Source: Rhodocyclaceae bacterium (lineage in GTDB: Bacteria > Pseudomonadota > Gammaproteobacteria > Burkholderiales > Rhodocyclaceae). Taken from it: DNA of 34,624 nucleotides. This document shows positions 2,801 through 34,326 of this stretch, one piece after another. The position numbers and the translations under genes are program-made. A model generated the notes under the pieces. That model was not told the DNA's origin. It searched no databases and saw only the letters and a program-made list of their open reading frames with translations. The stretch lies in the NCBI GenBank assembly GCA_035283885.1, contig DATETD010000466.1:1-34624 (forward strand). Direction: 5' to 3'. Every line of letters starts with the position of its first letter. Position 1 is the stretch's first letter.

Positions 2801-2895
2801 CATATCATCGTCGCGGTTTGTCGGCATGCGAAGCCTGTCGAGCGATTTATTTTCGAGTTATTTCGATTGATTGATTTAGGACGCTGGGAGCGTAG

Positions 2896-3753: not shown

Positions 3754-3782
3754 TTTTCAACTGCTATATCTTTGTGTGATCG

Positions 3783-4799: not shown

Positions 4800-4821
4800 A
4801 TTTTATTTCGATGCCTTGTAT

Positions 4822-6042: not shown

Positions 6043-6080
6043 TTTTTAACTGTTTTTGAGTTTGTTGATCGGAGTTTTTA

Positions 6081-6446: not shown

Positions 6447-6505
6447 ATCGCCCTTAAGCTGAATCGCTGCATCTTTTCTCGCCACGACTACGACAAGGAG
6501 GCGCC

Positions 6506-8764: not shown

Positions 8765-8817
8765 CCGGCGAACGATGTAGCGAATATCCGTAAATTATTG
8801 GAACAAGGAGCGAGAAC

Positions 8818-9324
8818 ATGATGAAGGATTATGCGGCAAAGAGCAACGACGCTGCGATCGAGGGTGGCTTTTCTCAGGAATATCTGACCTACACGCTGGG
8901 GCCGGAGGAATATGCGATCGATATTCTCAAGGTGCAGGAAATTCGCGGTTACGAGCCGCCGACGACAATCGCCAATGCGCCGACGTTTCTTAAAGGCGTG
9001 ATCAATCTGCGCGGCACCATCGTTCCCATCGTCGATCTGCGCATCAAATTCAACGTCGGTAAGGCGGATTACACTCCGTTCACCGTGGTGATTATTTTGA
9101 ATATCGGCAGTCGCGTGGTCGGGATTGTGGTCGATAGCGTCTCGGATGTCACCATGCTGCGCCAGGATCAGATTCGCCCGGCGCCCGAATTCGCCGCAAC
9201 CGTCGACGCCAAATATATCAATGGCTTGGGCACGCTGGGCGAGCGCATGCTGATTGTGGTCGATATCGAGCGCTTGATGCTATCGTCGGAAATGGCTTTG
9301 GTCGAGAGTGCGGTTCACGCCTAA
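8818..9324 (+). CDS. cheW: Chemotaxis coupling protein CheW
   Basis: 168 aa with an AAGGAG ribosome-binding site. CheW-domain blocks are present: [30 protein letters not shown] and [10 protein letters not shown]. Confidence 0.9.
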
Positions 9325-9339
9325 TGGGTTGACTCAAAA

Positions 9340-11754: not shown

Positions 11755-11762
11755 TGAGTAAA

Positions 11763-11784
11763 AAAGTCGGCGCTGACGGGACGG
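11763..11784 (+). repeat. 22-nt dispersed intergenic element, copy 1: aaagtcggcgctgacgggacgg
   Basis: It begins 9 nt after the MCP stop codon. The flanks are not conserved among copies. Confidence 0.8.
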
Positions 11785-11848
11785 TAGCGGAGCTTGCGTA
11801 GTCGCTTGTCCGCTTACCTTACGGACGATTAACCACAGATAACGATAC

Positions 11849-12208
11849 ATGCGTACTAATTTGCCGGTCACCCAGAAGGAAGTCGTGCTCGACGAAACGC
11901 GGCTGATCGTTTCCCGCACCGATTTGCAAGGAGCGATTACCTATGTCAACCGAGACTTCGTCGAGGTCAGCGGGTTTACCGAAGCCGAGTTGATCGGCGC
12001 GCCGCACAATATCGTGCGTCATCCCGATATGCCGGTCGAGGCGTTCGCCGATCTGTGGGCGACCTTGAAGGCCGGACGGCCTTGGGTGGGTTTGGTGAAG
12101 AATCGCTGCAAAAACGGCGATTACTATTGGGTGTTGGCGAATGCCGCGCCCGTGGTCGAGCAGGGACAGGTCACCGGGTATTTGTCGGTGCGCCGCCGCG
12201 CGTCGCCT
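11849..12208 (+). other. Aer-type (FAD-binding family) PAS domain
   Basis: The motifs TDLQGxITYVN, PHNxVRHPDMP, FADLW, [12 protein letters not shown] and GYxSVRR match the E. coli Aer N-terminal PAS. Confidence 0.75.
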
Positions 12209-14671: not shown

Positions 14672-14683
14672 GCTTGGGAGTGA

Positions 14684-14705
14684 AAAGTCGGCGCTGACGA
14701 GACGG
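14684..14705 (+). repeat. 22-nt dispersed intergenic element, copy 2: aaagtcggcgctgacgagacgg
   Basis: It begins 13 nt after the MCP stop codon and matches copy 1 at 21/22 positions. Confidence 0.8.
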
Positions 14706-14826
14706 GTCGAAGCGCGGATAGCAGCGCGGATCGTAGCGATTTCTCCTAGCGGCGCCTTAGTGGCGTCTATGTTTTTACCGTATGATGTTACCGTTGGCGA
14801 TGGTGGATCTTTAGAAAGAGAGCGAT

Positions 14827-15186
14827 ATGCGAAGCAATTTGCCTGTAACCCAGAAGGAAGCCCTGCTCGACGATGCGACCATGATCGTGTCGAAAACCGA
14901 TTTGCAGGGGCGGATTACCTATGTCAATAAAGACTTTATCGACATCAGCGGTTTTACCGAAGCGGAGTTGATTGGACAGCCGCATAATTTGGTGCGGCAT
15001 CCCGATATGCCGGTCGAGGCTTTCGCCGATCTGTGGAGCACGCTGAAGGCGAATCGCCCATGGATTGGGTTGGTTAAAAATCGCTGCAAAAACGGCGATC
15101 ACTATTGGGTCGAAGCGCACGCGGCGCCGATTTGGGACGGGGGCAGCGTCGTCGGTTATATGTCGGTGCGTCGCAAGCCGAGTCGA
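14827..15186 (+). other. Aer-type (FAD-binding family) PAS domain
   Basis: Same motif set as 11849-12208. Confidence 0.75.
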
Positions 15187-18081
15187 CAGCAGGTCGAGGC
15201 GGTCGAAAGCGCGTATCGCGCATTTCGCGACAACCGCGCCAAAAGTCTGGCCGTAGAGAATGGCGAGGTGGTGTCGCGCGGTTGGCTGGCGCGCGTCAAG
15301 CATCGTTTGCGCGACTCCGGTTTATCGACCAAGATGATTATCGGTTGTGCGTTGAGCGCCGTCGTCGTTATGACAGGGTCGACGACGTTCTTGGCGAAGC
15401 ACCTCGGCGGCATGCTGGAGGAGCAGGGGCTGGCCGAACTCAATCAGAATCTCAAGTTGATTAAGGGCATGGTCGAGGTGCGCGCCAAGGCGATGACGGC
15501 GGATGCCGCACGCTTGAACGATATCTTCGTGCATGATTTTCAGGGCGGATTCAGCGTCGAAGATGCGGGCGGCGAGACGCCGATTTTGAAGGTCGGCTCA
15601 ACCGTGCTCAACGGGCGCACCGAGGAGGTCGATCATTTCACCGAGATATCCAAGGCGGTGGCCACGGTGCTGGTGCGCAAGGGCGACGACTTTATTCGTA
15701 TCGCAACCTCGGTCAAAGACGAGAAAGGTCAGCGCGCCGTCGGCACGCGGATTACCAAGGATCATCCCGCGCATGCGAAGTTAATGGCAGGCGAGAATAT
15801 TTCGGGTAAGACCAATTTATTCGGCAAAGATTATTACGCCTCCTTCCGCTCGATTAGGGGGAAAGACGGTCAAGTGATCGGCGGTTTATTCATCGGCTTG
15901 GATGTTTCCGCCGAAGTGGCGGATTTGCGTCAGCACATCAAATCCGTCAAGGTGGGACAAACGGGATATTTCTTTGTTGTTAACGGTGAGCCGGGCAAGG
16001 ACTTAGGGCAGACGTTGGTCCATCCCGCCAAAGAAGGCGCGAATTTACTGGGCGCGAAGGATGCCGCGGGACGCGAATTTGTTCGCGAGATGATCGATAA
16101 AAAGCAAGGCGCGATTCGTTATCCTTGGGCGAACAAAGAGTTGGGCGATACCGAACCGCGCGAGAAAGTCGTCGTATTCGACACCTTCGCCGATTGGCAT
16201 TGGATCATCGGCGGCGGCACCTATCTCGACGAGTTCGAGGCGGTGGCGCGCACCATGCAGAAATTCTTGTGGATTACCTCGGCGGTGGTGGTGGCGGTGT
16301 TGATCGCGATGATTTCCTGGCTGGTGCGCATCCTGATCCGTAATCCGCTGCAGAACGAAGTTCTCCCGGCGTTCCGCGCCTTGTCGGGGGGGCGATACGA
16401 TACGCAGATGAATGTGGCGCGCAACGACGAGATCGGTCGGGTAATGCAAGGGCTGGAATCGATGCAGAATCGATTAGGCTTCGAAATCGCCGAGCAACAG
16501 CGCGTGGCGAACGAAAATCTGCGCATCAAAACGGCCTTGGATAACGTCAGCACCGGGGTGATGATTGCCGACACGAATCGCACCATTATTTACGCCAATC
16601 ATTCGGTGCAGCGCATCCTTAAAAACGCCGAAAGCGCGATTCGTCGGCAACTGCCGAATTTCGATGCGGAGCATATGCTGGGCGTCAATATCGACACCTT
16701 CCATAAGAACCCGTCGCACCAGGCGAATTTGCTGGCGACGTTTACCTCGACCTATGTGGCGAATATGGAGATCGGCGGGCGACATTTGCGCGTCACCGCC
16801 AGCCCGGTATTCAACGAGCGTAAGGAGCGCTTGGGCGCGGTGGCGGAGTGGTTGGATCGCACGGCGGAAGTTCAAGTCGAGCGCGAAGTGGCGGATATCG
16901 TCGATAGCGCACAGATCGGCGATTTCGACAAGCGTTTAAGTTTGGAGGGTAAAGAAGGCTTTATCCGGCAACTGGCCGAGGGATTGAACAGCTTGTCCGA
17001 GGTCACCTCGTCGGGATTGAAGGATGTGGCGACCGTATTGCAGGCCGTGGCGCAAGGCGATTTGACGAAGACGATCGATAAGGATTACCAAGGCATTTTC
17101 GGCCAGTTGAAGGACGATACCAATGCCACGGTCGAACGTTTGCGCGAAGTGGTGGGCCGCATCAAGGAAGCCACCGAAGCGATCAATACCGCATCGCAGG
17201 AAATTGCCGCCGGCAATCAGGATTTGTCGAGCCGCACCGAACAGCAGGCCAGCAGCCTGGAGGAAACGTCGAGTTCGATGGAACAGCTCAATGCGACCGT
17301 CAAGCAGAATGCGGATAGTGCGCGCCAAGCCAACGAGTTGGCCAAGACCTCGAATGCGGGCGTCACCCGCGGCGGTCAAGTGGTCAAGCAAGTGGTGGTG
17401 ACGATGGGCGAAATCCAGGCCAGTTCGCGCAAGATTTCCGACATTATCGGCGTGATCGACAGCATCGCCTTCCAGACGAATATCCTGGCGCTGAATGCGG
17501 CGGTCGAGGCGGCGCGCGCCGGCGAGCAGGGGCGCGGTTTTGCCGTGGTGGCGACCGAAGTGCGTAGCCTGGCGCAGCGTAGCGCGACGGCGGCGAAGGA
17601 GATCAAGGCCTTGATTGCCGAGTCGGTGGATAAGGTCGAGGGCGGCGCCAAGTTGGTGCAGCAGGCGGGGGCGACCATGGATGAGGTCGTGGTCAGTTTC
17701 CAGCAGGTGGCGGATATCGTCACCGATATTGCCGGCGCCAGCCGCGAACAGAGTTCGGGTATCGAGCAGGTGACTCAGGCCGTCAGCCAGATGGACGAAG
17801 TGACGCAACAGAATGCGGCCTTGGTCGAGCAGGCGGCGGCGGCGGCGGAAAGTCTGGAAGAGCAGACGCGCGGCCTGGTGCAGGCCGTCAGTATGTTCAA
17901 GCTGTCGGATACGCAACGACACCTACAACCGGTGGCGGCGACGCCGTTGCGCCACGCCGCCCCCGCTGCGCCTAAATCATTACCGAGCGCCCGCCCGTCG
18001 GCGCCGTCGGTGAGATCGTCGGGGAAAAAGCCGGTGCCGTCGCATTTGGTGGACGATGGCGAGCAATGGGAGGAGTTCTAA
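14827..18081 (+). CDS. MCP: N-terminal Aer-type PAS, TM1, large periplasmic Cache-like double sensor, TM2, HAMP, Aer2-type PAS, di-HAMP-like region, MA domain, C-terminal QWEEF
   Basis: 1084 aa. Aer-like PAS ([43 protein letters not shown]). The ~290-aa periplasmic region has Cache-like blocks ([64 protein letters not shown]). The PAS carries [12 protein letters not shown] and AEWLDRT. Confidence 0.9.
16519..16872 (+). other. Cytoplasmic PAS domain, Aer2-like (putative heme-binding)
   Basis: His codon 626 (16702-16704) lies in FHKNP and Trp codon 675 (16849-16851) in EWLDRT. Confidence 0.55.
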
Positions 18082-18095
18082 GCCATGCAACGCTG

Positions 18096-18117
18096 AAAGT
18101 CGGCGCTGGCGGGACGG
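18096..18117 (+). repeat. 22-nt dispersed intergenic element, copy 3: aaagtcggcgctggcgggacgg
   Basis: It begins 15 nt after the MCP stop codon and matches copy 1 at 21/22 positions. Confidence 0.8.
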
Positions 18118-18172
18118 ATCGCCAAAATCGAGCTTATCTCGTAGTATAACTTTGGTTATCTTCGGTCTAGCG

Positions 18173-18201
18173 TTGACAGCGTGTCTTTGTCCCTTTATTG
18201 T
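18173..18201 (+). promoter_or_regulatory. Candidate sigma70-type promoter upstream of cheR (TTGACA-N17-TATTGT)
   Basis: ttgaca at 18173-18178, a 17-nt spacer, and tattgt at 18196-18201, inside a 261-nt AT-richer gap between the third large MCP and cheR. This is a motif match only. Confidence 0.3.
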
Positions 18202-18342
18202 CGATAGCCTTGCTTGAAATGGATGATATCCTGTCGTTGATAGAGTGACAGCTTTGTTGAAGCCGACGCATGAGTCCGACGGCGGGATGCGCCATGAATC
18301 CACTTAACCTATAGCCCTGCAACCTGTGTCCGTAGAAAAAAA

Positions 18343-19203
18343 TTGACTGATCCGACTCGCGAATTCAACTTCACCAGCGCCGATTTCGAACGGGTGCGCA
18401 CGCTGATTTATCAGCACGCCGGCATTTCCTTGGCGCCGGTCAAGCAAGACATGGTGTATAGCCGCCTGGCTCGGCGATTAAGGGCGCTGGGCTACGCCAC
18501 GTTCGAGCAGTATTTGTCCCATCTGGAGTCGAACGACGCCGAGGAATGGGAGATTTTCGTCAATTCGTTGACGACGAATTTGACCTCGTTTTTCCGCGAG
18601 GCCCATCATTTCGAAATATTGACGCGCTATGTGCGCGAACTGCGTCAGCGCCCCATTCGCATTTGGTGCTCGGCAGCCTCGACCGGCGAAGAACCGTATT
18701 CGCTGGCGATTACCGCGTGCGAAGCTTTCGATTCGATGACGCCGCCGGTCGAGATATTCGCCAGCGATATCGACACCAACGTGCTGGCGACGGCGGAAAA
18801 AGGCATTTATACCCTGGAGCGGGTGAGTCAATTGAGTACGAATCGCTTGCAGCGATTCTTTCTCAAGGGAACGAAAGATCAAGCCGGATATGTGCGCGTG
18901 CGCCCCGAGCTGCAAAAGATGATCCGTTTTATGAGAATTAATTTATTGGATGCGCGCTGGGCGGTTCAGGGGCCTTTCGACGCGATTTTCTGTCGTAACG
19001 TGATGATTTATTTCGATAAACCGACGCAATACGCGATTTTGAAAAAATTTATGCCGTTATTGCGCGAAGACGGCTTGCTGTTTGCGGGACACTCGGAGAG
19101 TTTTTTACATGCCGCCGATATTTTTCGCTCGATCGGTCGCACCGTCTACGAACGCGCGGATCGCCGCTCGACCGAACCGGTATTGCCGGCAATAAAGAGA
19201 TAG
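18343..19203 (+). CDS. cheR: Chemotaxis protein methyltransferase CheR
   Basis: 286 aa and collinear with E. coli CheR (DMVYSRLARRLRALG, LTTNLTSFFREAHHFEIL, WCSAASTGEEPYSLA, FCRNVMIYFD). It appears to use a TTG start, because there is no in-frame ATG before the conserved N-terminal helix region. Confidence 0.9.
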   Translation: MTDPTREFNFTSADFERVRTLIYQHAGISLAPVKQDMVYSRLARRLRALGYATFEQYLSHLESNDAEEWEIFVNSLTTNLTSFFREAHHFEILTRYVRELRQRPIRIWCSAASTGEEPYSLAITACEAFDSMTPPVEIFASDIDTNVLATAEKGIYTLERVSQLSTNRLQRFFLKGTKDQAGYVRVRPELQKMIRFMRINLLDARWAVQGPFDAIFCRNVMIYFDKPTQYAILKKFMPLLREDGLLFAGHSESFLHAADIFRSIGRTVYERADRRSTEPVLPAIKR

Positions 19204-19207
19204 TGCA

Positions 19208-19810
19208 ATGGATGTCGGTTACGTAGAACATCTTGCCGGCAATCGTTACTATGACCGCACCTTCGATTCCGAGGCGGTCAAGGTGCTGCCGGGGGAATAT
19301 TTCGTCACCACGACCGAAATGGTGTTGGTGACTGTGCTTGGGTCCTGCGTATCGGCGTGTATCCGCGATCGGGAGAAGGGTATTGGCGGCATGAATCATT
19401 TCATGTTGGCCGAGACGACCGAAAAAAGCTCGGTATCTCCATCGGCGCGTTATGGGACTTACGCCATGGAGATTCTGATCAATCATCTGCTCAAGTTGGG
19501 CGCTAGACGCAATAATCTGGAAGCCAAGGTGTTCGGCGGCGGGCGAATCATGGCGACGCTGTCGTTGTCGAATGTCGGCGACCGCAACGCCAGTTTCGTG
19601 CTGGAGTTTCTCAAAACGGAAGGGATTTCGGTGATGGCGCAGGATTTGCTCGACGTGCATCCGCGCAAAGTCTACTTTTTTCCCAGCACCGGGCGGGTAT
19701 TGGTCAAGAAACTCACGCGCATGCATAACGACACATTGATGCGGCGCGAAACCGAATACGCCGCGCGTCTTACGGAAGCGCCGGTTTCGGGCGACATCGA
19801 ACTTTTCTAG
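19208..19810 (+). CDS. cheD: Chemoreceptor glutamine deamidase CheD
   Basis: 200 aa with CheD blocks: [10 protein letters not shown] (catalytic Cys region), GGMNHFMLA and KVFGGG. It starts 4 nt after the cheR stop. Confidence 0.9.
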
Positions 19811-19818
19811 GGGAATTC

Positions 19819-20925
19819 ATGCCAATCAAGGTACTTGTGGTTGACGATTCCGCGCTGATGCGCGCTTTGCTGTCGGAAATCATCAATGGCGCGCCCGATT
19901 TGGAAGTGGTCGGCACGGCGCCGGATCCGATCGCCGCGCGCGAGATGATCAAGGCGCTCAACCCGGACGTATTGACGCTCGATGTGGAAATGCCCCGCAT
20001 GGACGGCCTGGAGTTTCTGCGGCATTTGATGCGCTTGCGTCCGATGCCGGTGATTATGATATCGGCCTTGACCGAGCGCGGCTCGGAAGTGACCTTGCAG
20101 GCGCTGGAAATCGGTGCGGTCGATTTCTTGGCCAAGCCGCGGGCGGAAAACGTCAGTCAACTGCTGGGTTATGCGGATGAAATTCGCGACAAAATTCGCA
20201 TGGCCAAATCGGCGCGCTTGAAGACGGGAGCGGTCAAATCGGTGGAAGGGCGCGGTGCGGCATCGGTAGTTGCAGCGGCGGCGCCGATCTCGGCTGCTGC
20301 ATCGGCAGCGCTTTCGTTAGGCGGCGGTGCGTCGCGCAATTTGAAAGATCGGGTGGTCGCCATCGGCGCCTCGACCGGAGGCACCGAAGCGATTAAGGAC
20401 GTGTTGAGTCGGCTGCCCGCCGAGATGCCGCCGATCGTAATGGTTCAACATATGCCAGAAACCTTCACCCCTTCGTTTGCGCGGCGTTTGGACACCGTCG
20501 GCCCCTTGCGTGTCGTCGAAGCGCAGGGCGGAGAGCGTTTGCAATCCGGGACGGCGTATTTGGCGCCGGGCCACTCGCATATGTCCGTCAGACGCAGTGC
20601 GGGCGGGTATGTGTTGGAATTGGCCAAGTCGGAGCCGGTCAATCGACATCGGCCTGCCGTCGATGTCTTGTTCCATTCGGTGGCGGAACAGGTGCGAAAT
20701 CATGCGCTAGGGGTGATTTTGACCGGTATGGGCAAGGACGGCGCGCAAGGGATGTTGGCGATGCGCAAGGCGGGCGCTTGGAATATCGGTCAGGATCAGG
20801 CTTCGTGCGTGGTGTATGGCATGCCGAAGGAAGCGGCGCAGGTCGGTGCGGTGGACGAGGTGGCGGCTTTGCCCGATATCGCAGCGCGCATCGTCGCTCG
20901 TTTGCGTGCGGAGCCACGCGCATGA
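19819..20925 (+). CDS. cheB: Chemotaxis response regulator protein-glutamate methylesterase CheB
   Basis: N-terminal receiver ([23 protein letters not shown]), an Ala-rich linker, and a C-terminal esterase domain ([28 protein letters not shown]). Confidence 0.95.
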
Positions 20926-21079
20926 TCGCGGCTATACTGGTGTAGGATGGTGCGACTCGACGAGCGCTTGGCGTCATCGGCGGCGGATCGGGTTCATTGG
21001 GTTGTAAATGGGATAATCAACCTTGGGGTGCGAAGCGAATCGCATCGGTGGGTATTTTGATCGAATAGGAAGACGATAT

Positions 21080-21382
21080 ATGCAAGCGACAGTGACAATG
21101 ACGGAAGGGCGTGCGGTGATTCATCTCCAGGGACGCTTCGATTTTAACGCCCATCGCGAATTTCGCGAGGCGGTGGATAATGCGACGACCAACACCACGG
21201 GCGAAATCGCCGTCGATTTGGCGCGCGTCGAATATCTCGACAGTTCTGCTCTAGGCATGCTGTTGATGTTGCGCGATAAGGCGAAAGGCTTGGGGCGCGA
21301 AGTCGCGCTGGTCGGTTGTCGCGGCGCCGTGAAGCAGGTTATCGACATCGCCAACTTCGGCAAGTTATTCCGTATCGACTGA
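21080..21382 (+). CDS. STAS-domain protein (SpoIIAA-like anti-sigma-factor antagonist family)
   Basis: 100 aa from the ATG at 21080, with AGGAAG 8 nt upstream. The ORF-track start at 21023 adds an unlikely leader. It has the SpoIIAA-like pattern GEIAVDLARVEYLDSSALGMLLML, with the conserved DSS serines at 21242-21247. Confidence 0.75.
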   Translation: MQATVTMTEGRAVIHLQGRFDFNAHREFREAVDNATTNTTGEIAVDLARVEYLDSSALGMLLMLRDKAKGLGREVALVGCRGAVKQVIDIANFGKLFRID

Positions 21383-21427
21383 AGCGGCGATGTCCCCAGG
21401 TATCGAAAATTTGGACGCGAACGAAGG

Positions 21428-22648
21428 ATGACTAGAATGAGCGGACCCATACGGCATATGTCGTGGGTAAGGGCGGCGGGAGGATTCCTATTCGGGTTGG
21501 CGATATCCGGCGGCGCGGCGGCGATCGCTTCATACGCTGGAGGCGCTCTTTCCGTCGATGTCGTGGCGATGGCGGTGGCGTTAGGCCTTGCGTCGGGACT
21601 TATTCCGCTTATCTACGCGCACGCCGCGATCACCGGCGATGCGGCGCGCGTTGTCGATTTTATCGGCATGATCGGCGCCGCTGGCGATCCGCAGCGTCCT
21701 CTTGAACCTATCGGTCTGCCCGAAGATTCGCCTTTGTCTTCGATAGCGCAGTCCTGCATCGAATTGGCGTCGCGTTTGCGGAATGGGACGACGCAACTGG
21801 CGGCGAGTGCGGCTCGGTTGAAACGCACCGTCGAGGGGTTGGTCGGCGATATGCATAACGCCTCCGATGGGACGAGTCGGCAAATCGGCGTGGCGGAGTC
21901 CGCCGCTGCGGCCTTGGCGGCCTTGGCGTCCGATGTGATGGATGCGGCGCAACGCTCCGAGGAGACGGCGCGGATTGCCCAGGCGGCCTGTCGGCATTCC
22001 TCGCGAGGGGCGGAAATCGTCGAGGAGGCTTCGGCGGAGATCGAGCGCATTGCGCGCACCGTGGAGCAATCGGCTCAGGTCGTGGCGGAACTCGGAGAGC
22101 GATCCAAAAATATTTCGGGAATCGTTAAAGTGATTCACGATATTGCCGATCAAACCAACCTACTGGCGCTGAATGCGGCGATCGAGGCGGCTAGAGCCGG
22201 GGAGCAGGGGCGCGGATTTGCGGTTGTGGCGGACGAAGTTCGCAAACTCGCCGAGCGCACGACCGCTGCGACGAGCGAAATCGGCAAAATGATCGCGGAT
22301 ATTCAAGCGGAAACCGGCAGCGCGATCGCTACGATACGCGTCGGTTCGGCGCAGGCGAACAACGGCTCGATGCTGGCTAGGCAGGCGGCCGAGTCGCTTA
22401 AATCGATCAATTCGGGAGCGCAGGATACGTTGGATAAGGTATCGGCGATCGCCAATACCATGGCGCAACAGAGCGATAAGACGCAGGTAATTACAGGGCA
22501 TATACACGACGTAATCGACTCGACGCGGCGCCAGCGCGAATTTGCTCGGGAGGCTTTGTCGAAGGTCAATAATCTCGGGCTGTTGTCGAGGGATTTCGAA
22601 CAGCTTGGGGTTTTGACGTCGGGGAGCGAACGGCCGCTAGCGTCCTGA
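21428..22648 (+). CDS. Methyl-accepting chemotaxis protein, 406 aa, two TM helices with a minimal periplasmic loop and no sensor domain
   Basis: Signalling hairpin [31 protein letters not shown]. The TM helices are [19 protein letters not shown] and [20 protein letters not shown]. There is no C-terminal pentapeptide. The start could be 21428 or 21437. Confidence 0.85.
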
Positions 22649-22776: not shown

Positions 22777-23748
22777 ATGTCCGATTTATTGAAAAATATT
22801 GATGCTCGAACCCGGCTTGCGGGAACCAATAAGCTCGAAATATTGCTGTTCGCCTTAGGCAAGGATAATCGCACCGGACGTTGTGAGCCTTTTGGCATCA
22901 ACGTGTTCAAGGTGCGCGAAGTGATGCGCACGCCGCCGATCACCAGTGCTCCGGAAATGGTGGCGGCGGTTAAAGGCATGGTCAGCCTGCGAGGTTCTTT
23001 GGTGCCGGTGGTGGATCTGGCCGATTACATCGGTATGGTGCCGGAAACGCCGCGCGACATCATGATCGTGACCGAATATAACGGACATACTCAGGGTTTT
23101 CTGGTCGAGTCGGTGGATACTATTTTGCGTTTGGATTGGTCGCAAATGCGGGTTCCGCCGGATATGTTGACCACCAATCTCGGCGGCTTGGTGACGGCGG
23201 TGACCGAACTGGCCGATAATCGCTTGGTAATGATGCTCGATGTCGAGCGCGTTTTGGCCGAAACCGCGAAATACGACGATCATTTAGTGTTCTCCAATAT
23301 CAGGCCGCTGGAAAAAGAGGGAATGACAGTGTTGTTTGCCGACGATTCGCAGGTGGCGCGGGGGCAAATCGAACGTACTCTGACGGCGATGGGCGTCAAT
23401 CAGATCGGCGCGATCAACGGTCGCGCCGCCTGGGACGAACTGCAACGGATTGCCGCTTTTGCCGAAAGCGCCGGCAGATCGGTCAAGGATTATGTTCAGG
23501 TGATTTTGACCGACGTGGAAATGCCGGAGATGGACGGTTATATTTTGACGAAAAACGTAAAGTCCGATCAACGCTTCGAGGGAATTCCGATAGTAATGCA
23601 TTCGTCGTTGTCTTCGATGTCGAATCAACAATTGGGACGTTCCGTCGGCGTCGACGAATATGTGCCGAAATTCGAACCCAATCGCTTGTCGGAGACCTTG
23701 ACCCGTCTGCTGCTGCATAAGCCGACGAATTTGGTCAGACCGCGTTGA
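22777..23748 (+). CDS. cheV: CheV (CheW-like domain fused to a receiver domain), copy 1
   Basis: 323 aa. CheW-like N-terminus (FGINVFKVREV, VSLRGSLVPVVDL) and a C-terminal receiver with the acceptor Asp in ILTDVEMPEMDGY and the Lys in VPKF. Confidence 0.9.
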   Translation: MSDLLKNIDARTRLAGTNKLEILLFALGKDNRTGRCEPFGINVFKVREVMRTPPITSAPEMVAAVKGMVSLRGSLVPVVDLADYIGMVPETPRDIMIVTEYNGHTQGFLVESVDTILRLDWSQMRVPPDMLTTNLGGLVTAVTELADNRLVMMLDVERVLAETAKYDDHLVFSNIRPLEKEGMTVLFADDSQVARGQIERTLTAMGVNQIGAINGRAAWDELQRIAAFAESAGRSVKDYVQVILTDVEMPEMDGYILTKNVKSDQRFEGIPIVMHSSLSSMSNQQLGRSVGVDEYVPKFEPNRLSETLTRLLLHKPTNLVRPR

Positions 23749-23827: not shown

Positions 23828-24802
23828 ATGAATTCAGTTGTGGTTGCTTCAGATATTCAACGCAGGGATGGTACTCTGCTTGAGACTGTGGATGCGCGAA
23901 CTAAGCTCGCGGGTTCGAACCGAATGGAAATTCTGTTGTTTTCATTGGGAACGCATGAAACCTTCGGCATCAATGTGTTCAAGGTGCGCGAAGTCAGCAA
24001 GACGCCCGCGATCACCAAAGCCCCGAATATGCCTAGCGGCGTGGAAGGATTGATCAGCTTGCGCGGCAATGTCATTCCCGTGGTTTCGTTGAGCAAGGTG
24101 ATGAATCTGGCGGATGCGCCCTCGAAGCTGGGGGCGTCGATGATGGTGACCGAGTACAGCAAGCGCACTTTGGGATTTTTGGTGCATGGCGTGGACCGCA
24201 TTATTCGAGTCGAATGGGACCGAGTGCGCGCTCCCGAATCGGTGACCAGCGGCACGCATGTTTTGATTACGGCGATCACCGAGCTGGCCGACGGTAAATT
24301 GGTGTCGATCCTCGATGTCGAGCAGATTATGGCGAATACGTTTGGCGAAAGCGTGGTCGGCCAGATCGAGCCGGTGCAGGTGATCGAGGATATCAACGTA
24401 TTTTTTGTGGACGATTCCGGGATCGCGCGCAAGAAAATCGCCGAAGTGTTGGAAAAACTTAGGGTCAAGCATAAACATGCGCAAAACGGTAGCGAAGCCT
24501 GGACCCGCTTGTCGGGTATGGCGGCGCATGCGCATCAATCGGGCAAGAGCCTGCGCGACGAGTTGAGTCTAATACTGGTCGATGCGGAAATGCCGGAAAT
24601 GGATGGTTATGTGTTGACCAAACATATCAAATCGGATTCGCGTTTCGATGGGATTCCGGTGGTGATGCACTCATCGTTATCTTCGGAGGCCAATCGGGCG
24701 ATGGGTAAGAGTGTGGGCGTTGACGCCTATGTGGCGAAATTTGATGCGGATATTTTGGCGGATACGTTGCGTCCGCTGTTGAATAAATCCGCTCGCGAAT
24801 GA
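23828..24802 (+). CDS. cheV: CheV (CheW-like domain fused to a receiver domain), copy 2
   Basis: 324 aa with a GGAGAG ribosome-binding site. By eye it is roughly 50% identical to copy 1 (FGINVFKVREV, ISLRGNVIPVVSL, ILVDAEMPEMDGY, VMHSSLSS). Confidence 0.9.
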   Translation: MNSVVVASDIQRRDGTLLETVDARTKLAGSNRMEILLFSLGTHETFGINVFKVREVSKTPAITKAPNMPSGVEGLISLRGNVIPVVSLSKVMNLADAPSKLGASMMVTEYSKRTLGFLVHGVDRIIRVEWDRVRAPESVTSGTHVLITAITELADGKLVSILDVEQIMANTFGESVVGQIEPVQVIEDINVFFVDDSGIARKKIAEVLEKLRVKHKHAQNGSEAWTRLSGMAAHAHQSGKSLRDELSLILVDAEMPEMDGYVLTKHIKSDSRFDGIPVVMHSSLSSEANRAMGKSVGVDAYVAKFDADILADTLRPLLNKSARE

Positions 24803-24817: not shown

Positions 24818-25210
24818 ATGGCAATTGATCCGAGTAAGCTCAGGATTCTTGTGGTTGACGATTTTTCGACAATGCGCAGAATTGTGCGGAATCTTCTTAA
24901 AGAGTTGGGCTATACGAATGTCGATGAGGCCGAAGACGGCGCCGTCGCGTTGCAAAAGCTCAAAGGTGGCGGCTTCGAGTTCGTGGTGTCGGATTGGAAT
25001 ATGCCCAATATGGATGGCTTGACGCTATTGCAGTCCGTGCGCGCCGATCCGAATTTAAGGCGTTTGCCTTTCTTGATGATTACCGCCGAGGCCAAAAAGG
25101 AAAATATCATTGCGGCGGCGCAGGCGGGGGCTTCGGGGTATATCGTAAAACCATTTACTGCCGCGACTTTGGCCGACAAGCTGACAAAAATTTTCGAGAA
25201 GATGGGCTGA
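24818..25210 (+). CDS. cheY: Chemotaxis response regulator CheY (E. coli-type)
   Basis: 130 aa with an AGGAGAG ribosome-binding site. It is near-collinear with E. coli CheY ([62 protein letters not shown]). Confidence 0.95.
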
Positions 25211-25265: not shown

Positions 25266-26453
25266 ATGGCAAAACCGATATTATTTGACGAGAGCGGAGA
25301 TTCGAGCGACCTGCAAGCGTTGTTCGACCAGATTGCGGCGGGCGCTCCGCCGAGTCCGCCTTCCCCACCGCCAGCCCCTCCGCCTGCACGTTCGAGCGGC
25401 GCCGGCGATAATGACGAATTGCAGGCTTTATTCGATAACGTTGCGGCGGCAGCGGCAGTTTCGGCGGCGCCTGCTCCTTCGGCGCCTACCAAGGGGCGCG
25501 CCCCCGCAGGCGATACGCCCGATCTCGAAGCCTTGTTCGATAGCGTCGCCGCTTCGGTTCAAGCGTCGGCCCCGTCGGTGCCGCCTGTAGCCGTTGCGTC
25601 GCCGCGAGCCAGTGCGATGGGGGATAGCGACGAGCTTCAGGACTTATTCGATAGTGTGGCGGCAGCCGCTGCGCCGCCGGTGCCCCCAGCGCCTCCTCTC
25701 CCCCGTGCGGTCGCTACCACGAACGATTCTCAGGATTTGCAGGACTTGTTCGATAGCGTGGCGCAACAAAGCGCCGGTGCGGACGATGTCGAGGAGGCCG
25801 CCGAGGAGGAGTCCTTCGCTCAAATGAGTGATCACGACGGTGCGAGCGTATTCAATCAACTGGGGCAGCTTGCACGTAAATTGCATAATAGCTTGCGCGA
25901 GTTGGGCATCGACAAAATATTGGAGCATACGGCGCGCAATCAGATTCCCGATGCGCGTCAACGCTTGACCTACATCGCCAAAATGACCGAGCAGGCCGCC
26001 TCGCGGGTGTTGAATGCGATCGATATTGCCTCGCCCTTGCAGGATCAATTGATCGAACGCTCCAATACGCTGGCCAAGCGCTGGGACAAAATGTTCGACA
26101 ATCAATTATCGGTCGAAGAATTCAAAACCCTGGCGGCGGACTCGCGATCTTTTTTCAAAGAGTCGCCGGAAAAGCTCAAGGCGACCAACGAACAATTGAC
26201 CGAAATCATGATGGCGCAGGATTTTCAGGATTTGACCGGTCAGGTCATCAAAAAAGTGGTCGAGATGGCTCAGGAAATGGAAGGCCATTTGTTGAGCGTA
26301 TTGATCGAAGCGATGCCCGAAGACAAAAAGGCCGAAGCGCCGATGGCGATGGCCGGTATGATGAACGGGCCGGTGATCGACCCGAACGCGCATACCGATG
26401 TGGTGACTAGTCAGTCTCAAGTCGACGATCTTTTGGAAAGTCTGGGTTTTTGA
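25266..26453 (+). CDS. cheZ: CheY-P phosphatase CheZ with a ~185-aa N-terminal repeat-containing extension
   Basis: The C-terminal ~210 aa are a canonical CheZ: IPDARQRL, the MMAQDFQDLTGQ catalytic block and the C-terminal VDDLLESLGF CheY-docking peptide. The N-terminal part has five motif repeats separated by Pro/Ala spacers. Confidence 0.9.
   Translation: MAKPILFDESGDSSDLQALFDQIAAGAPPSPPSPPPAPPPARSSGAGDNDELQALFDNVAAAAAVSAAPAPSAPTKGRAPAGDTPDLEALFDSVAASVQASAPSVPPVAVASPRASAMGDSDELQDLFDSVAAAAAPPVPPAPPLPRAVATTNDSQDLQDLFDSVAQQSAGADDVEEAAEEESFAQMSDHDGASVFNQLGQLARKLHNSLRELGIDKILEHTARNQIPDARQRLTYIAKMTEQAASRVLNAIDIASPLQDQLIERSNTLAKRWDKMFDNQLSVEEFKTLAADSRSFFKESPEKLKATNEQLTEIMMAQDFQDLTGQVIKKVVEMAQEMEGHLLSVLIEAMPEDKKAEAPMAMAGMMNGPVIDPNAHTDVVTSQSQVDDLLESLGF
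25296..25766 (+). repeat. Five protein-level tandem repeats GDxx[DE]L[QE]xLFDx[VI]AA in the CheZ N-terminal extension
   Basis: aa 11-25, 47-61, 82-96, 119-133 and 153-167. Synonymous codon usage differs between copies. Confidence 0.85.
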
Positions 26454-26487: not shown

Positions 26488-28455
26488 ATGAGTGACTTTC
26501 AAGGAATGGAAGACCTGCTCCAGGATTTCCTGGTGGAGGCGGGCGATCTGCTGTCGGGTGTCGATAACAAACTGGTGGATCTCGAACAAAATCCCAGCGA
26601 TCATGCGCTGCTAAACGAGATATTTCGCGGTTTTCATACGATCAAAGGTGGCGCAGGATTTTTGAATGCGGCGGAGCTGGTTACTCTTTGCCATTTAACC
26701 GAGAATTTGTTCGACCGTTTGCGTAACGGCGAGATGAGTATTTCGGGCGAATTGATGGATGTGATTATGGCGGCGACCGCTGGGGTGCGCGAAATGTTTG
26801 CGCAGCTGGAGTTCGGCACCCAGCCGGATGCGGCAGACCCTGTCGTCTTGTCGAAACTTAAAGCGGCATTGGCTGGACAGTTGGGCGCTGCCCCTCCGGC
26901 GGCGGCGTCCGAGCCTGTGGCAACGTCCAAGCCTGCAGCGACGTCCCCTGTTGCGTTGGCGCCGACGCCCTCTGCGGCAGAGCCGACGGGCCCCGACTGG
27001 AACAATTTGTATGCGGCGGTTACCGGCGCAGCGCCGGTGGCCGCCAGTGTCCCATCCGCGCCGCCGCCGCCGCAAGCGCCCGTAATCGCCGCCGCGCCGC
27101 CACCGCCACCGCCTTTGCCTGCCGTCGCCAGCGGCGAACCCGAGCAGATCATTCAAGCGGCTGTCGGTCGTCGTGCTGCGGATAAACCCGGCGCGGTGGC
27201 GCCCGTTGGGCGTCGCGATGTCGAAAAGACGCGCGATAACTCCATCCGTGTGGATACTTCGCGACTCGATCAGGTGCTGAATTTGTCGGGCGAAATCGGC
27301 TTGACCAAGAATCGTCTGAATGCCTTACGTTCCGACATTCTGAGCGGTCGCTCGGATACCGACACCTTGCATGCGCTGGACCAGGCGGTTAGCCAACTGG
27401 ATTTGCTGGTGTCGGATTTGCAGAACGCAGTCATGAAGACGCGGATGCAGCCTATCGGTCGCTTGTTTCAGAAATATCCGCGTATCGCCCGCGATTTGGC
27501 GCGTAGTTTGGGCAAGGACGTCGAACTGGTGCTGGTCGGCGAAGACACCGAAATCGACAAGACGATGATCGAAGACTTGTCGGACCCGATCATCCACCTC
27601 ATACGCAACGCCGTCGATCATGGCGTCGAATCGACCGAAGAGCGTCGTTCCATGGGGAAATCGGAAAAATCCCAAGTGCGTTTGGAGGCGCGTCAGGAAG
27701 GCGATCATATCGTTCTGATCGTTGCCGACGACGGTAACGGGATGAACGCCGAGCGTTTGCGCGCCAAGGCCTTGGAAAAAGGCCTGATTACCGACGAAGA
27801 AGCCAACACCATGGACGAAAGACAGAGTTTCAATCTGATCTTTATGCCAGGTTTCTCGACCAAGGACGTGGCGTCCGATGTGTCGGGGCGCGGCGTCGGC
27901 ATGGACGTGGTCAAAACCAATATTCAGAAATTGAATGGTTCGATCGAAATCAAATCGGTGATCGGCAAGGGATCGACATTCGTGATTTCCTTGCCATTGA
28001 CGCTGGCGATTTTGCCGGTATTGTTGGTGCAGTTGGGTTCTCAGCCGTTTGCCGTACCCTTGTCGATGGTGCGGGAAATTTTGCCGATCCATCCGAGCGG
28101 GGTGCAAGAGGTCGGCGGTTGCGCGACCATGGTGGTGCGTGGCGAAGTCATGCCGATCTATCCGCTGACCTATCTTTTGGGCTGGGAAGCCGAATTGGTG
28201 CCGGAGTACGGCGTGCTGATGCAAACCTCGGATTGCACCTTTATTTTGGCGATCGACGGTTTCATGGGGCGCGAAGATGCAGTGATCAAATCCTTGGAGG
28301 ATTTCCGTCCCAAGGGCGTGGCGGGGGTGACGACGCTGTCGAACGGGCAGATCGTCTTGATTCTCGATATGAAGGAAGTATTGGGCAATCTCGGCGAGTT
28401 GCGCGGCGTGCCGCGCTCCGTCTTCTTGCGTCCGGAGGATGCCATGGCGGCTTAA
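26488..28455 (+). CDS. cheA: Chemotaxis histidine kinase CheA, second copy, without a recognisable P2 domain
   Basis: 655 aa with a GGGAGG ribosome-binding site. Hpt motif GFHTIKGGAGFLNA. A ~120-aa Ala/Pro/Ser linker includes PPPPPPLP. P3 NSIRVDTSRLDQVLNL. Kinase boxes HLIRNAVDHG, DDGNGM and GRGVGMD. A P5 CheW-like domain follows. Confidence 0.9.
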   Translation: MSDFQGMEDLLQDFLVEAGDLLSGVDNKLVDLEQNPSDHALLNEIFRGFHTIKGGAGFLNAAELVTLCHLTENLFDRLRNGEMSISGELMDVIMAATAGVREMFAQLEFGTQPDAADPVVLSKLKAALAGQLGAAPPAAASEPVATSKPAATSPVALAPTPSAAEPTGPDWNNLYAAVTGAAPVAASVPSAPPPPQAPVIAAAPPPPPPLPAVASGEPEQIIQAAVGRRAADKPGAVAPVGRRDVEKTRDNSIRVDTSRLDQVLNLSGEIGLTKNRLNALRSDILSGRSDTDTLHALDQAVSQLDLLVSDLQNAVMKTRMQPIGRLFQKYPRIARDLARSLGKDVELVLVGEDTEIDKTMIEDLSDPIIHLIRNAVDHGVESTEERRSMGKSEKSQVRLEARQEGDHIVLIVADDGNGMNAERLRAKALEKGLITDEEANTMDERQSFNLIFMPGFSTKDVASDVSGRGVGMDVVKTNIQKLNGSIEIKSVIGKGSTFVISLPLTLAILPVLLVQLGSQPFAVPLSMVREILPIHPSGVQEVGGCATMVVRGEVMPIYPLTYLLGWEAELVPEYGVLMQTSDCTFILAIDGFMGREDAVIKSLEDFRPKGVAGVTTLSNGQIVLILDMKEVLGNLGELRGVPRSVFLRPEDAMAA

Positions 28456-31932: not shown

Positions 31933-33485
31933 CTGTAAAACGCTTTGTGGGCGCATCGGCGCGCGAATGTTTTCGCCGCGTCAAGGAAGAGTTGGGGCCG
32001 GATGCGATCGTGATTTCAAATAAGCCATTGGACGACGGTTCGGTGGAAATCGTCGCCAGTTCGCCCGAAAGCCTGGATGCATTGTCGGCGCAAGCCCATG
32101 CGCCGCGCGGCGCGGCCTTGACTTCGCGTATGCCCTCGTGGGCCGAGTCGCCGGCGGGTAAACATCGAGCGCCGCCTAAACCGGCGGCCCATCCTGCGCC
32201 GCCGCCGACCGAGGACGATTACACCGTCACCTTGTCGTCTAAAGGCGCGTTGAAACCGGCGTTGGTGCGACCCTGGACGCCGTATGCGATCAATTCGGCG
32301 CCGGCGCCGGCGCCGGCAGCGCCGATGGCGGAACCGCGCGCTTCGGTGCGTCCCGCAGCGCGCAAAGCGGCGGCGCCCGCCGACTTCGGCGCGCCCGGCG
32401 GACGCCCAGGCGTCAGAGCAGCGACGCCGCGTAGCGACGAGTATCGGGAGACGCCGCTTAAGGAGCCGGCAAGTCGCGCCAGAGAAGGCGTTCGCGACGC
32501 GCCTCGGCAAGCGACCGACCCGCAGGTGAGCCCGCAGGTGAGTCAGTTGATGGAAGAGATGCGGGTGATCAAAAGCTTGCTGGAGCATCAATTGTCGGGT
32601 TTTGCTTGGGGGGATATGATTAAGGAAAGCCCGATGAAAGTGCAATTGCTCGGCGAAATGATAGAAGCCGGTTTTTCAGGACAATTGACTCGACGCCTGA
32701 TTCAGGAAATGCCGGAAAATCCGAACCAGTCCGAAGGGCTGAAATGGATGATGGCGGCGGTCAATCGGCGCTTGCGCACCTTGCCGACCGAATCCGATTT
32801 CATCGACCGCGGCGGGGTGTATGCCTTGGTGGGACCGACGGGCGTCGGTAAGACGACGACGACGGCCAAGCTCGCCGCGCGTTGCGTGGTGCGTTACGGC
32901 GCCGAGCGTCTGGCCTTGATGACGACCGACAACTTCCGCATCGGTGCGCACGAGCAGTTGCGCGTTTATGGCCGCATCCTCGGCGTGCCGGTGTTCGTGG
33001 TGCGCGACGGCGAGGATTTGCGCCGCACCTTGGCGGATTTGCGCGATAAGCATATGGTGCTGATCGATACGGTGGGCATGAGTCAGCGCGATCGCATGGT
33101 GGCCGAGCAGGCGGCGATGCTGACGCGCAGCGGCGAGGTGAATCGCCTGTTGTTGCTGAACGCCGGTTGCCGCGGCGACACCTTGGACGATGTGATACGC
33201 GCGTATTCGGGCGAAGATCTGGCGGGATGTATTCTGACTAAAGTCGACGAGGCGACGGCGTTGGCGCCGGCGTTGGATTGCATTATTCGCCATGGCTTGA
33301 CCTTGAGTTATGTGGCGAACGGTCAACGCGTGCCCGAAGATCTTCATTTGCCCAACCGCAATTACATTCTGCACCGGGCTTTCAAAGTCGGCGCCGGCGA
33401 GACGGCTCATCGCCTAAAACCGGACGAATTGGCGATGACCTATTCCATGAACAAAGAAACCAGGGAAGGGGCCTCGCATGCTTGA
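31929..33485 (+). CDS. flhF: Flagellar placement SRP-type GTPase FlhF
   Basis: ATGA overlap with the flhA stop. N-terminus MTVKRFVGASARECFRRVKEELGPDAIVIS, a basic Pro/Ala-rich B region, and an NG domain with GPTGVGKTTT, DTVGMS and TKVDE. Confidence 0.9.
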   Translation: MTVKRFVGASARECFRRVKEELGPDAIVISNKPLDDGSVEIVASSPESLDALSAQAHAPRGAALTSRMPSWAESPAGKHRAPPKPAAHPAPPPTEDDYTVTLSSKGALKPALVRPWTPYAINSAPAPAPAAPMAEPRASVRPAARKAAAPADFGAPGGRPGVRAATPRSDEYRETPLKEPASRAREGVRDAPRQATDPQVSPQVSQLMEEMRVIKSLLEHQLSGFAWGDMIKESPMKVQLLGEMIEAGFSGQLTRRLIQEMPENPNQSEGLKWMMAAVNRRLRTLPTESDFIDRGGVYALVGPTGVGKTTTTAKLAARCVVRYGAERLALMTTDNFRIGAHEQLRVYGRILGVPVFVVRDGEDLRRTLADLRDKHMVLIDTVGMSQRDRMVAEQAAMLTRSGEVNRLLLLNAGCRGDTLDDVIRAYSGEDLAGCILTKVDEATALAPALDCIIRHGLTLSYVANGQRVPEDLHLPNRNYILHRAFKVGAGETAHRLKPDELAMTYSMNKETREGASHA

Positions 33486-34326
33486 GGGAATGGGCTATAT
33501 CGCCGGGGATCAGGCCGACGGCTTGCGTCGGCTATTCGGGGTTCCCGATCCCCAGGTGTTGGCCTTCGTCGCGGGAGGCGAGTCGTGCGGGCGCACCACG
33601 TTGTTGGCGCAAACCTCGCTGGCCTTGGCGCATGCCGGGCAAGGGGTGGTGGCGATCGACGAAAACTCCGGCCCGGATAATCTATTCGACGCTCTTGGCC
33701 TCAAGCCGCGTGGCGATTTATTGGACGTGGTGCAAAACGGTCGAGCGCCGCAGCAGGCGATGTTGCCGGCGGCGCCGTTGTTGACGATGGTGGCGGCGTC
33801 GCGTTTGGCCGAATGTTTGCAGTATGTCGATGTCGAAGCGGCGGATCGTCTCGACGATGGGCTGAGAGAGATTCATCGGGGATCGTCGTTCGTATTGATC
33901 GATAGCGCGATCGGGCGGGGCGGTTATCTTTCGCCGTTGACGCTGGCGGCGCGCCATATCGTGGTCGTGCTGACGGCGCAAGGTTCGTCGATTACGCAGA
34001 CGTATTCGTTCGTCAAGCGATTGGCGCGAGAAAGCGGGCGCGACGAATTTCAGGTGGTGATAACCCGTGCGCGTAACGAACACGAGGCGGCAGCGATCTT
34101 CGAGAATATCCGCCATACGGCCCATCGTCATCTGGGGGTGCGTCTGGAGTATCTCGGCGCCTCGCGCGTACCGGTGACCGACGATCTGTCCGGGGTGTTG
34201 ACGCGTCGCTGGTCGTCGATGTTGAGCGAGCATCGACCGGGCGGCTTTTTGCAATTTCGCACCCATTCGCTGCAAGGCGAGGCATACACCCGGCAGACCG
34301 AGGAATTTTTGGAAACAGTGGTATAG
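33478..34326 (+). CDS. flhG: FlhG/FleN-like MinD/ParA-family protein with a degenerate Walker A motif
   Basis: It overlaps the flhF 3' end by 8 nt. It is collinear with P. aeruginosa FleN (VLAFVAGGESCGRTTLLAQTSLALAHAGQGVVAIDENSGPDNLFDALGL versus [49 protein letters not shown], the latter from memory). The N-terminus carries DQADGLR. The position between flhF and fliA supports the call. Confidence 0.75.
   Translation: MLEGMGYIAGDQADGLRRLFGVPDPQVLAFVAGGESCGRTTLLAQTSLALAHAGQGVVAIDENSGPDNLFDALGLKPRGDLLDVVQNGRAPQQAMLPAAPLLTMVAASRLAECLQYVDVEAADRLDDGLREIHRGSSFVLIDSAIGRGGYLSPLTLAARHIVVVLTAQGSSITQTYSFVKRLARESGRDEFQVVITRARNEHEAAAIFENIRHTAHRHLGVRLEYLGASRVPVTDDLSGVLTRRWSSMLSEHRPGGFLQFRTHSLQGEAYTRQTEEFLETVV

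Follow-up and report, generated by a model that had tools for sequence, protein, structure and literature searches.

The question raised by this locus is what a chemotaxis phosphatase does with a long N-terminal arm along which one short motif is repeated five times. The protein is a CheZ, encoded in a stretch of 34,624 nucleotides from a Rhodocyclaceae bacterium (GenBank assembly GCA_035283885.1, contig DATETD010000466.1, positions 1 to 34,624 of the forward strand), and this whole stretch is hereafter called the window. Based on the conservation of the motif among relatives and on structure prediction, the arm is very probably a functional array of docking motifs.

The protein from the window is a true CheZ, in which every defining feature of CheZ that was tested was found. 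The Pfam CheZ domain (PF04344) matched residues 194-395 with 252.6 bits against a cut-off of 30.7, the NCBIfam CheZ equivalog (NF008368) matched residues 180-395 with 287.6 bits (cut-off 257), and E. coli CheZ (1KMI), the sole solved structure that aligned, did so with residues 185-395. A preliminary description, made from the sequence, had placed the beginning of the core only near residue ~185 and the C-terminal VDDLLESLGF at 26421-26450, and both were confirmed. D322 (26229-26231) and Q326 (26241-26243) aligned with D143 and Q147 of E. coli CheZ (1KMI_Z), and the columns of these catalytic residues, which belong to the MAQDFQDLTGQ block, were both invariant in an alignment of 85 sequences. 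An AlphaFold2 model of the window CheZ monomer, run with the same 85-sequence alignment, showed the long helices of the core at residues 227-277 and 283-349, with a predicted local distance difference test score (pLDDT) of up to 98. The C-terminal docking peptide was predicted to be helical at residues 383-392, and 11 of its 13 columns were at least 95% conserved among 61 loci. The assigned start codon is correct, since the N-terminus MAKPI.FDESGDS is common to the orthologs. The gene adjoins cheY, the order in the window being cheY, cheZ, cheA.

The arm itself (residues 1-193) had no Pfam or NCBIfam coverage and was rich in Ala (44), Pro (27), Asp (22) and Ser (22), its net charge being -25. 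A motif of 14 residues, with the consensus G-D-S-x-[DE]-L-[QE]-x-L-F-D-x-[VI]-A, occurs in it five times (Table 1), at spacings of 36, 35, 37 and 34 residues and with Pro/Ala-rich spacers between the copies. No further occurrence of the strict motif was found in the six-frame translation of the window. Copy 1 is the ortholog of the first copy in all relatives, its columns D12, L16, L19, F20 and D21 being invariant in the 85-sequence alignment, while copy 4 aligns with the second copy of the two-copy relatives and has D120, L124, L127, F128 and D129 as invariant columns. At the DNA level, no repeat of the motif period was found by Tandem Repeats Finder, the 45-nucleotide units were 53-73% identical in pairwise comparisons, and differing codons were used at 2-7 of the 8-12 identical residues of each copy pair (about half). 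The peptide, not the DNA, is thus the conserved unit, and the lack of a DNA repeat together with the differing codons at identical residues indicates selection at the peptide level. The five copies and their period of about 36 residues, as well as the use of differing synonymous codons that argues against a recent DNA duplication, had been pointed out in the preliminary description; its coordinates were reproduced exactly and its reading of the codons holds.

Table 1. Positions of the cheZ features and of the neighbouring genes and linker islands in the window.
Feature	Position	Residues	Strand	Basis or prediction
cheZ, 395 residues including the N-terminal arm	25266-26453		+	open reading frame; Pfam PF04344 and NCBIfam NF008368
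Acidic Pro/Ala-rich arm, predicted disordered	25266-25844	1-193	+	composition, AlphaFold2, no domain match
Motif copy 1, GDSSDLQALFDQIAA	25296-25340	11-25	+	predicted helix 12-24
Motif copy 2, GDNDELQALFDNVAA	25404-25448	47-61	+	predicted helix 49-66, block pLDDT ~85
Motif copy 3, GDTPDLEALFDSVAA	25509-25553	82-96	+	predicted helix 88-99
Motif copy 4, GDSDELQDLFDSVAA	25620-25664	119-133	+	predicted helix 121-134, block pLDDT ~83
Motif copy 5, NDSQDLQDLFDSVAQ	25722-25766	153-167	+	predicted helix 155-168
CheZ repeat peptide, GDSDELQALFDSVAA				
CheZ catalytic helical core	25845-26411		+	Pfam, 1KMI_Z alignment, AlphaFold2
Canonical C-terminal CheY-P-binding peptide, ...SQVDDLLESLGF	26412-26450	383-395	+	pattern as in E. 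coli QVDDLLDSLGF
Two tandem cheV (CheW-like + receiver), candidate partners	22777-23748, 23828-24802		+	Pfam CheW and Response_reg
cheY, 130 residues, substrate and candidate partner	24818-25210		+	Pfam Response_reg
cheA	26488-28455		+	Pfam Hpt, H-kinase_dim, HATPase_c and CheW only
CheA linker island 1, GPDWNNLYAAVTG	26989-27027		+	family pattern [GE]PDWxxL[HFY]xAVTG
CheA linker island 2, PEQIIQAAVGRRAADKPG	27139-27192		+	family pattern PEQIIxxAxGRRxxDKPG

The motif was found only on CheZ and is the mark of a large subfamily of betaproteobacterial CheZ proteins (Rhodocyclales, Nitrosomonadales, Chromobacteriaceae), in which two copies are the rule, single copies are frequent and numbers of 3-6 have evolved several times. 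When the arm was searched by itself, 1241 proteins matched at E<=1e-3, and the best 120 of these 1241, which were examined, were all CheZ with one (14 proteins), two (88), three (16) or four (2) copies. Among 80 genome loci that were compared, a CheZ open reading frame was found in 79, and each of these 79 carried at least one copy (one in 19 loci, two in 59 and three in 1). Most of the loci belonged to Rhodocyclales (Methyloversatilis, Dechloromonas, Azonexus, Azoarcus, Thauera, Zoogloea, Sulfuritalea and others) and the remaining ones partly to Nitrosomonadales, Hydrogenophilales or Chromobacteriaceae; two copies were typical inside Rhodocyclales and one outside, with the motif at the extreme N-terminus in the single-copy lineages. 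In 286 distinct instances from relatives, the D of G-D-S and the core L, L and F were invariant and the following D was 98% conserved, whereas the CheZ cores in the same loci had a mean identity of only 57%. The spacers of the family contained 28% Pro and 27.5% Ala, the motif spacing had a median of 33 residues (range 25-55), and the median distance between the last motif and the core was 35 residues, compared with ~34 for the linker that leads to the CheY-binding peptide at the C-terminus.

An exhaustive scan of 1.84 billion representative proteins with a 17-column motif profile gave 129 matches at E<=1e-3, 55 of them with a CheZ core. The motif lay within the first 35 residues in 72 of the 74 coreless matches, most of which were short N-terminal fragments. 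The only coreless matches longer than 200 residues (P0130, P0190 and P0200) were discarded as non-CheZ carriers because they were chimeric or frameshifted, and P0197 proved to hold an unrelated 8-residue tandem repeat. The window CheZ was the top match of the scan, with 130 bits and E=1e-33 over five stretches, values that in 1.84 billion proteins exclude chance as the origin of the array. Larger numbers of copies were also found in distant CheZ lineages, namely four each in P0122 (368 residues) and P0213 (328 residues), about six degenerate copies (ELEALFDRAT, ELDALFETNA and others) in P0194 (477 residues), and three well-preserved copies together with several decayed ones (DADLFFDAPP, FDGLFFENAP) in P0184 (405 residues). 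The expansion of copy number has therefore occurred repeatedly, and these four proteins would be useful for mapping the essential positions of the motif.

The array of the window is thus the extreme in copy number, and the top-scoring case, of a family trait. Its closest relative in the genome collection, with 86% identity in FlhA and 74% in the CheZ core, has two copies, and the same five-copy gene was present in three other metagenome assemblies with 0-2 nucleotide differences; the only amino acid change among these four near-identical versions, S104P, falls in a spacer. The preliminary description had held that its reading would fall if the extension were not conserved in orthologs, and had suggested looking at the spread and copy number of the motif: the extension is conserved, and the motif varies from 1 to about 6 copies on CheZ only. 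The rarity that it implied has to be given up, as the arm is a trait of the subfamily and only the copy number of five is extreme. As a separate observation, an in-frame ATG (Met118, 25617-25619) stands directly before copy 4 (..ASAMGDSDELQ..); a start there would yield a two-copy protein of 278 residues, the usual size in the family, and no obvious ribosome-binding site is visible upstream of it.

AlphaFold2 predicted one helix for each copy, with block pLDDT values of ~57 to 85 that were highest in copies 2 and 4, in an arm whose linkers between copies remained below 50. The C-terminal docking peptide showed the same signature, and AlphaFold2 confidence within disordered regions has been reported as a marker of conditional folding (bioRxiv 10.1101/2022.02.18.481080). 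The copies have the properties of molecular recognition features, that is, conserved short islands, predicted to be helical, within a variable region of low complexity and low confidence. Because fairly confident helices stand out in a low-confidence arm, the array bears the signature of docking elements that fold on binding.

To which known docking peptides the motif is related was addressed by gapped comparison of a window repeat, AGDNDELQALFDNVAAA, with several candidates, p values being taken against random protein 19-mers and composition-matched shuffles. The highest score (30; p=5.5e-4 and 0.003, respectively) was obtained with a LID repeat of CheA, SGDITDDEFEALLDQLHGK, while E. coli FliM_N scored 17 (p=0.10 and 0.34) and the CheZ C-terminal peptide 15 (p=0.21 and 0.36). 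With an ungapped position-specific scoring matrix (PSSM), the scores were 17.5 for E. coli FliM_N (p=7e-4 per scanning window), 10.6 for a Pseudomonas putida LID repeat (p=4e-3), 9.7 for the CheZ C-terminal peptide (p=6e-3) and 7.9 for an island of the CheA linker (p=9e-3). The FliM_N likeness in this test was rejected, since it owes much to a non-conserved GDS and folded CheA P3 helices score 24-26, values beside which none of the four scores is meaningful. A hidden Markov model of the strict motif gave about -2 bits with FliM_N, LID, the CheZ C-terminal peptide and the CheA island alike, and a softer model did the same. A match of the CheZ motif to LSQxEIDALL or DDLLxSLGF was thus found neither in the gapped comparison nor with the PSSM, and in these same two comparisons CheA island GPDWNNLYAAVTG had no significant similarity to the motif. 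The N-terminus of Pseudomonas CheZ, GD[FL]ESTL, was aligned with the motif by MAFFT and was also discarded as a homolog (pairwise score 12, p=0.53; the segment is predicted to begin a long helix). Of the multivalent docking module proposed in the preliminary description, the selected, conserved motif with a predicted helix per copy has stood, and the argument from sequence resemblance has not, as the likeness to the CheZ C-terminal tail and FliM_N was at chance level (gapped p=0.10-0.36). On marginal evidence from these alignments, LID would be the nearest known system in motif and architecture, an analogue and a lead rather than a demonstrated homologue.

As to what the arm docks to, we tentatively favour a multivalent tether to the receptor array, a reading that we hold at somewhat less than even weight. 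Each motif copy would fold into a short amphipathic helix on binding and would dock one conserved chemotaxis partner, the flexible spacers and the several copies providing avidity. The preferred partner would be a repeating element of the polar receptor-array baseplate, with the CheW-like domain of the two upstream CheVs as the first candidate and CheA-P5 and CheW as the next. The arm would in this way hold the phosphatase beside the kinase, and copy number would set how tightly or densely CheZ sits on the array. The proposed tether has a functional parallel in the binding of E. coli CheZ to CheA-short, and an architectural one in gammaproteobacterial CheA, whose acidic LID repeats bind the CheW-like protein ParP. 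It is favoured because of this LID-ParP analogy, multivalency naturally fitting a lattice; because of the strong phyletic coupling that has been reported between CheV.I and F6-class CheZ (bioRxiv 10.1101/2022.05.07.491037); and because there are precedents for lineage-specific recruitment of CheZ, including that by the N-terminal region in A. caulinodans.

Several results weigh against the array tether. Conservation fails to single out CheV, since the candidate partners all lie at about 70-81% mean identity (CheY 81%, the CheW-like domain of CheV_a, the first of the two CheVs, 80%, CheA P1 73% and CheA P5 71%), and the N-terminal linker (median 35 residues) is about as long as the C-terminal one (~34), an arrangement that would also suit delivery of CheY to the active site. 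LID is tied to ParC/ParP, being described as occurring only together with them (PMC5706961), and parC and parP were found neither within ~10 kb downstream of the flhG-like gene nor elsewhere in the window, and thus not around this module. The LID score was the best of 20 pairs, which brings its corrected p to ~0.01-0.06; moreover, the profile of the CheZ motif misses the LID repeats, and a profile of four LID repeats misses the CheZ motif. Finally, when the arm was aligned with the linker of P. putida CheA, the score of 106 was lower than that obtained with the linker reversed (113), and similarity at the level of the region is therefore compositional. Region-level homology between the two was accordingly rejected: it reached z=3.4 against simple shuffles, but block shuffles attained the score in 16/500 cases.

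A broader version of the array tether, which we consider unlikely, would see a single family of acidic helical plug peptides, carried in Pro/Ala-rich arms, attaching enzymes to CheW-like baseplate sockets in F6-like modules, with CheA as the enzyme in gammaproteobacteria (LID and ParP) and CheZ in betaproteobacteria (the motif and CheV). If this were true, the number of copies (1 to 6) would be an evolvable dial for the amount of phosphatase on the array, and the phyletic coupling reported for CheV and CheZ would have its long-sought physical basis in CheV.

The alternative that survives best is one in which each copy is an extra binding helix for CheY-P (or for the phosphorylated CheV receiver) on the alpha4-beta5-alpha5 face. 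With ten of these sites, a CheZ dimer would capture CheY-P over a wider radius, supply its active site with substrate and rival the motor for CheY-P. This was the first option named in the preliminary description, which also considered docking to CheA or to a polar landmark. A capture antenna of this kind is possible, if on the doubtful side. The acidic amphipathic helix, with its order acid-hydrophobic-x-small-L-hydrophobic, recalls FliM EIDALL and CheZ VDDLL, but that likeness is the one found above at chance level, and background helices score higher. The CheY encoded beside cheZ has a canonical, basic binding face that hardly differs from the one in the enterobacterial CheY of 2FKA, and equivalents of K91/K92, Y106, K119 and K122 are retained (window numbering +2). 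Single-copy lineages have the motif at the extreme N-terminus, as in FliM_N, and the linker between the last motif and the core matches the length of the C-terminal tether. The neighbouring CheA has no P2 CheY-docking domain recognisable by Pfam; this is no special pointer, since more than half of all CheA are without P2 (PMC10542144). Of the CheY columns, window residues 119 and 123, which stand on alpha5 on either side of K119 (E. coli numbering), show the strongest association with the Q/E variant of the motif. This covariation is weak, however (mutual information over entropy, MI/H, 0.60 and 0.44), phylogeny confounds it, and a single protein can contain both Q and E copies (EQ, QE). Furthermore, as CheZ already possesses an invariant C-terminal CheY-P tether, the addition of as many as six CheY sites would bring partial redundancy.

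A partner of another kind, such as CheA P1, a flagellar switch or export component, or a polar landmark (FlhF/FlhG-type, FimV/HubP-like), is regarded as improbable; it would place CheZ at the flagellated pole and not on the lattice of the array. The position of cheZ in one gene string with flhB, flhA, flhF, the flhG-like gene, fliA and motAB would agree with such a role, but this flagellar synteny is not universal, many loci having unrelated genes after cheA. Lineage-specific localisation partners are used by other CheZ lineages (CheA-short in E. coli, for instance) and the CheA linker has conserved islands of its own, yet no motif-bearing or obviously motif-binding candidate was identified. 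Very little weight is given to intramolecular regulation, in which the helices would bind back to the bundle of CheZ itself, or to the site of the C-terminal peptide, for auto-inhibition or control of oligomerisation. Oligomerisation of CheZ with CheY-P is known from E. coli, and the helices reach their pLDDT of ~57 to 85 even in the monomer model, but a variable copy number and long, floppy, low-confidence linkers would be unusual for a defined latch. A functionless expansion of a low-complexity linker, to which the Pro/Ala content of the spacers and the varying copy number might point, is effectively refuted by the conservation data, the motif being near-invariant where CheZ cores are only 42-74% identical, its codons diverged between copies, its spacing constrained and the S104P change confined to a spacer.

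The genes around cheZ belong to a recurrent module, the order cheV-cheV-cheY-cheZ-cheA being found in nearly all related loci whose contig reaches far enough upstream. No cheW was found in this module or in its downstream flagellar string, and no FliM gene was found in the window. After cheA, the window and many Rhodocyclales have flhB, flhA, flhF and the flhG-like gene, and near-identical contigs continue beyond the end of the window with fliA, motAB and then the divergent flgNMA and flgB onwards, whereas other lineages have an EAL-HDOD gene or unrelated genes in this place. In cheA, two islands within the Pro/Ala-rich linker between P1 and P3 (Table 1) were conserved in ~70 orthologous CheA, the rest of the linker varying freely, and they look like docking motifs. 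The gene in the flhG/FleN position (33478-34326) keeps the N-terminal DQAxxLR helix and has GGESCGRT as its Walker A motif, not KGGxGK[ST]; it had no Pfam match at E<=1e-3, with weak MinD matches only, and the conservation of this degenerate pattern among relatives (G.[ED]..GR[ST]) suggests that the clade has a non-hydrolysing variant of FlhG.

Directly upstream there is another chemosensory cluster (4732-22648), which is complete and whose arrangement recurs in many related loci. It starts with a methyl-accepting chemotaxis protein (MCP), cheY (6081-6446), cheA (6506-8764, no Pfam P2 match) and cheW (8818-9324), and continues with three large MCPs (804, 940 and 1084 residues), cheR, cheD, cheB, a STAS-domain protein (21023-21382) and a 406-residue MCP. 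The region 47-4799 contains genes of the Na+-translocating oxaloacetate decarboxylase type (carboxyltransferase, biotin carrier and, at 1548-2753, OAD beta), with additional motA and motB genes beside them (2896-3753 and 3783-4799). Another motAB pair is located after fliA, immediately beyond the end of the window. This arrangement raises the possibility of a sodium-linked stator set.

No description of the motif strings or of a CheZ N-terminal repeat arm was found in the literature searched, and databases label the arm-bearing proteins simply as CheZ, so that the protein is a CheZ with an extra, probable docking module that is apparently undescribed. CheZ ranks among the most thoroughly studied signalling phosphatases, but to our knowledge its placement in the cell is understood only for E. 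coli, where it occurs via CheA-short, which is restricted to enteric bacteria. A near-invariant peptide, private to CheZ, in a large and environmentally abundant group (wastewater and groundwater Rhodocyclales, Nitrosomonadales, Chromobacteriaceae) provides a handle on the positioning of the phosphatase or the routing of CheY-P in systems with CheV scaffolds and a P2-less CheA, on the meaning of the reported co-occurrence of CheV and CheZ, and on the tuning of a signalling enzyme by multivalency. If the partner were CheY-P instead, the arm would be a natural substrate antenna or a decoy competing with the motor, which would also be new for CheZ.

Among known systems, canonical CheZ (214 residues in E. 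coli, 262 in Pseudomonas) agrees with the window protein in its core, in both catalytic residues (D and Q) and in the C-terminal peptide. E. coli CheZ has only 6 residues before the aligned core and no counterpart of the arm, and in Pseudomonas the N-terminus GD[FL]ESTLK... leads directly into predicted helices (6-27 and 31-67), a Pro/Ala arm and repeats being absent; the statement of the preliminary description that these proteins are without such an extension therefore holds, by the 1KMI alignment and the Pseudomonas CheZ sequences. The CheZ C-terminal peptide and FliM_N (LSQxEIDALL) resemble the motif in being short, acidic, conditionally helical and attached by flexible tethers. These CheY-P docking peptides are terminal and single, whereas the N-terminal motif of CheZ is internal and multi-copy, and differs from them by its own invariant G-D-S prefix and L-F-D-S core. 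Recruitment of CheZ to the pole is mediated in E. coli by CheA-short, and in A. caulinodans polar localisation was mapped to the first 70 residues of CheZ and was reduced by N-terminal deletions (PMC8563088). Both are cases of lineage-specific placement of CheZ at the polar array, without repeats and without a Pro/Ala arm, and E. coli relies on no linear motif, the apical hairpin of the folded CheZ bundle making contact with a truncated P1 domain.

The closest comparison is with the LID repeats of F6-class CheA in Pseudomonas and Vibrio (core EFExLLD, DEITDAEFESLLDQLHGKG), which bind the CheW-like AIF domain of ParP. LID is reported to be sufficient for ParP binding in Vibrio, and AlphaFold3 models map the proposed ParP contacts to the repeats, which overlap the LID region (bioRxiv 10.1101/2025.10.27.684771; PMC5706961). 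In P. putida, which has parC/parP after motCD, the CheA linker (residues 125-360) is Pro/Ala-rich and carries four acidic repeats, SGDVTDNEFEMLLDSL, QGDEITDAEFESLLDQLHGKG, SGDITDDEFEALLDQLHGKG and SSDLISDHEFESLLDELHGKG; the first of these, at about residue 151 of the P. putida CheA (locus L085, 10801-13038), is a fourth, more divergent LID-like repeat upstream of the three given in the preprint. It was also noticed that the N-terminus GD[FL]ESTL of the Pseudomonas CheZ (L085, 10001-10789), where a long helix is predicted to start, echoes the LID core EFESLL. LID differs from the array of the window in that it sits in CheA, between P1/P2 and P3, and not in CheZ; the linker of the CheA encoded next to cheZ has the different island GPDWNNLYAAVTG. 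The two motifs are also separated by an indel of two residues after GD, and LID ends in an LHGKG tail for which the CheZ motif has no equivalent. Like the CheZ motif, however, LID is a short acidic amphipathic element of the form sGD..[DE][DE]-hydrophobic-[EQ]-x-L-hydrophobic-D-x-hydrophobic, repeated 3-4 times about 40 residues apart in a Pro/Ala-rich disordered segment of a core chemotaxis enzyme, and its role is to hold that enzyme on the receptor array.

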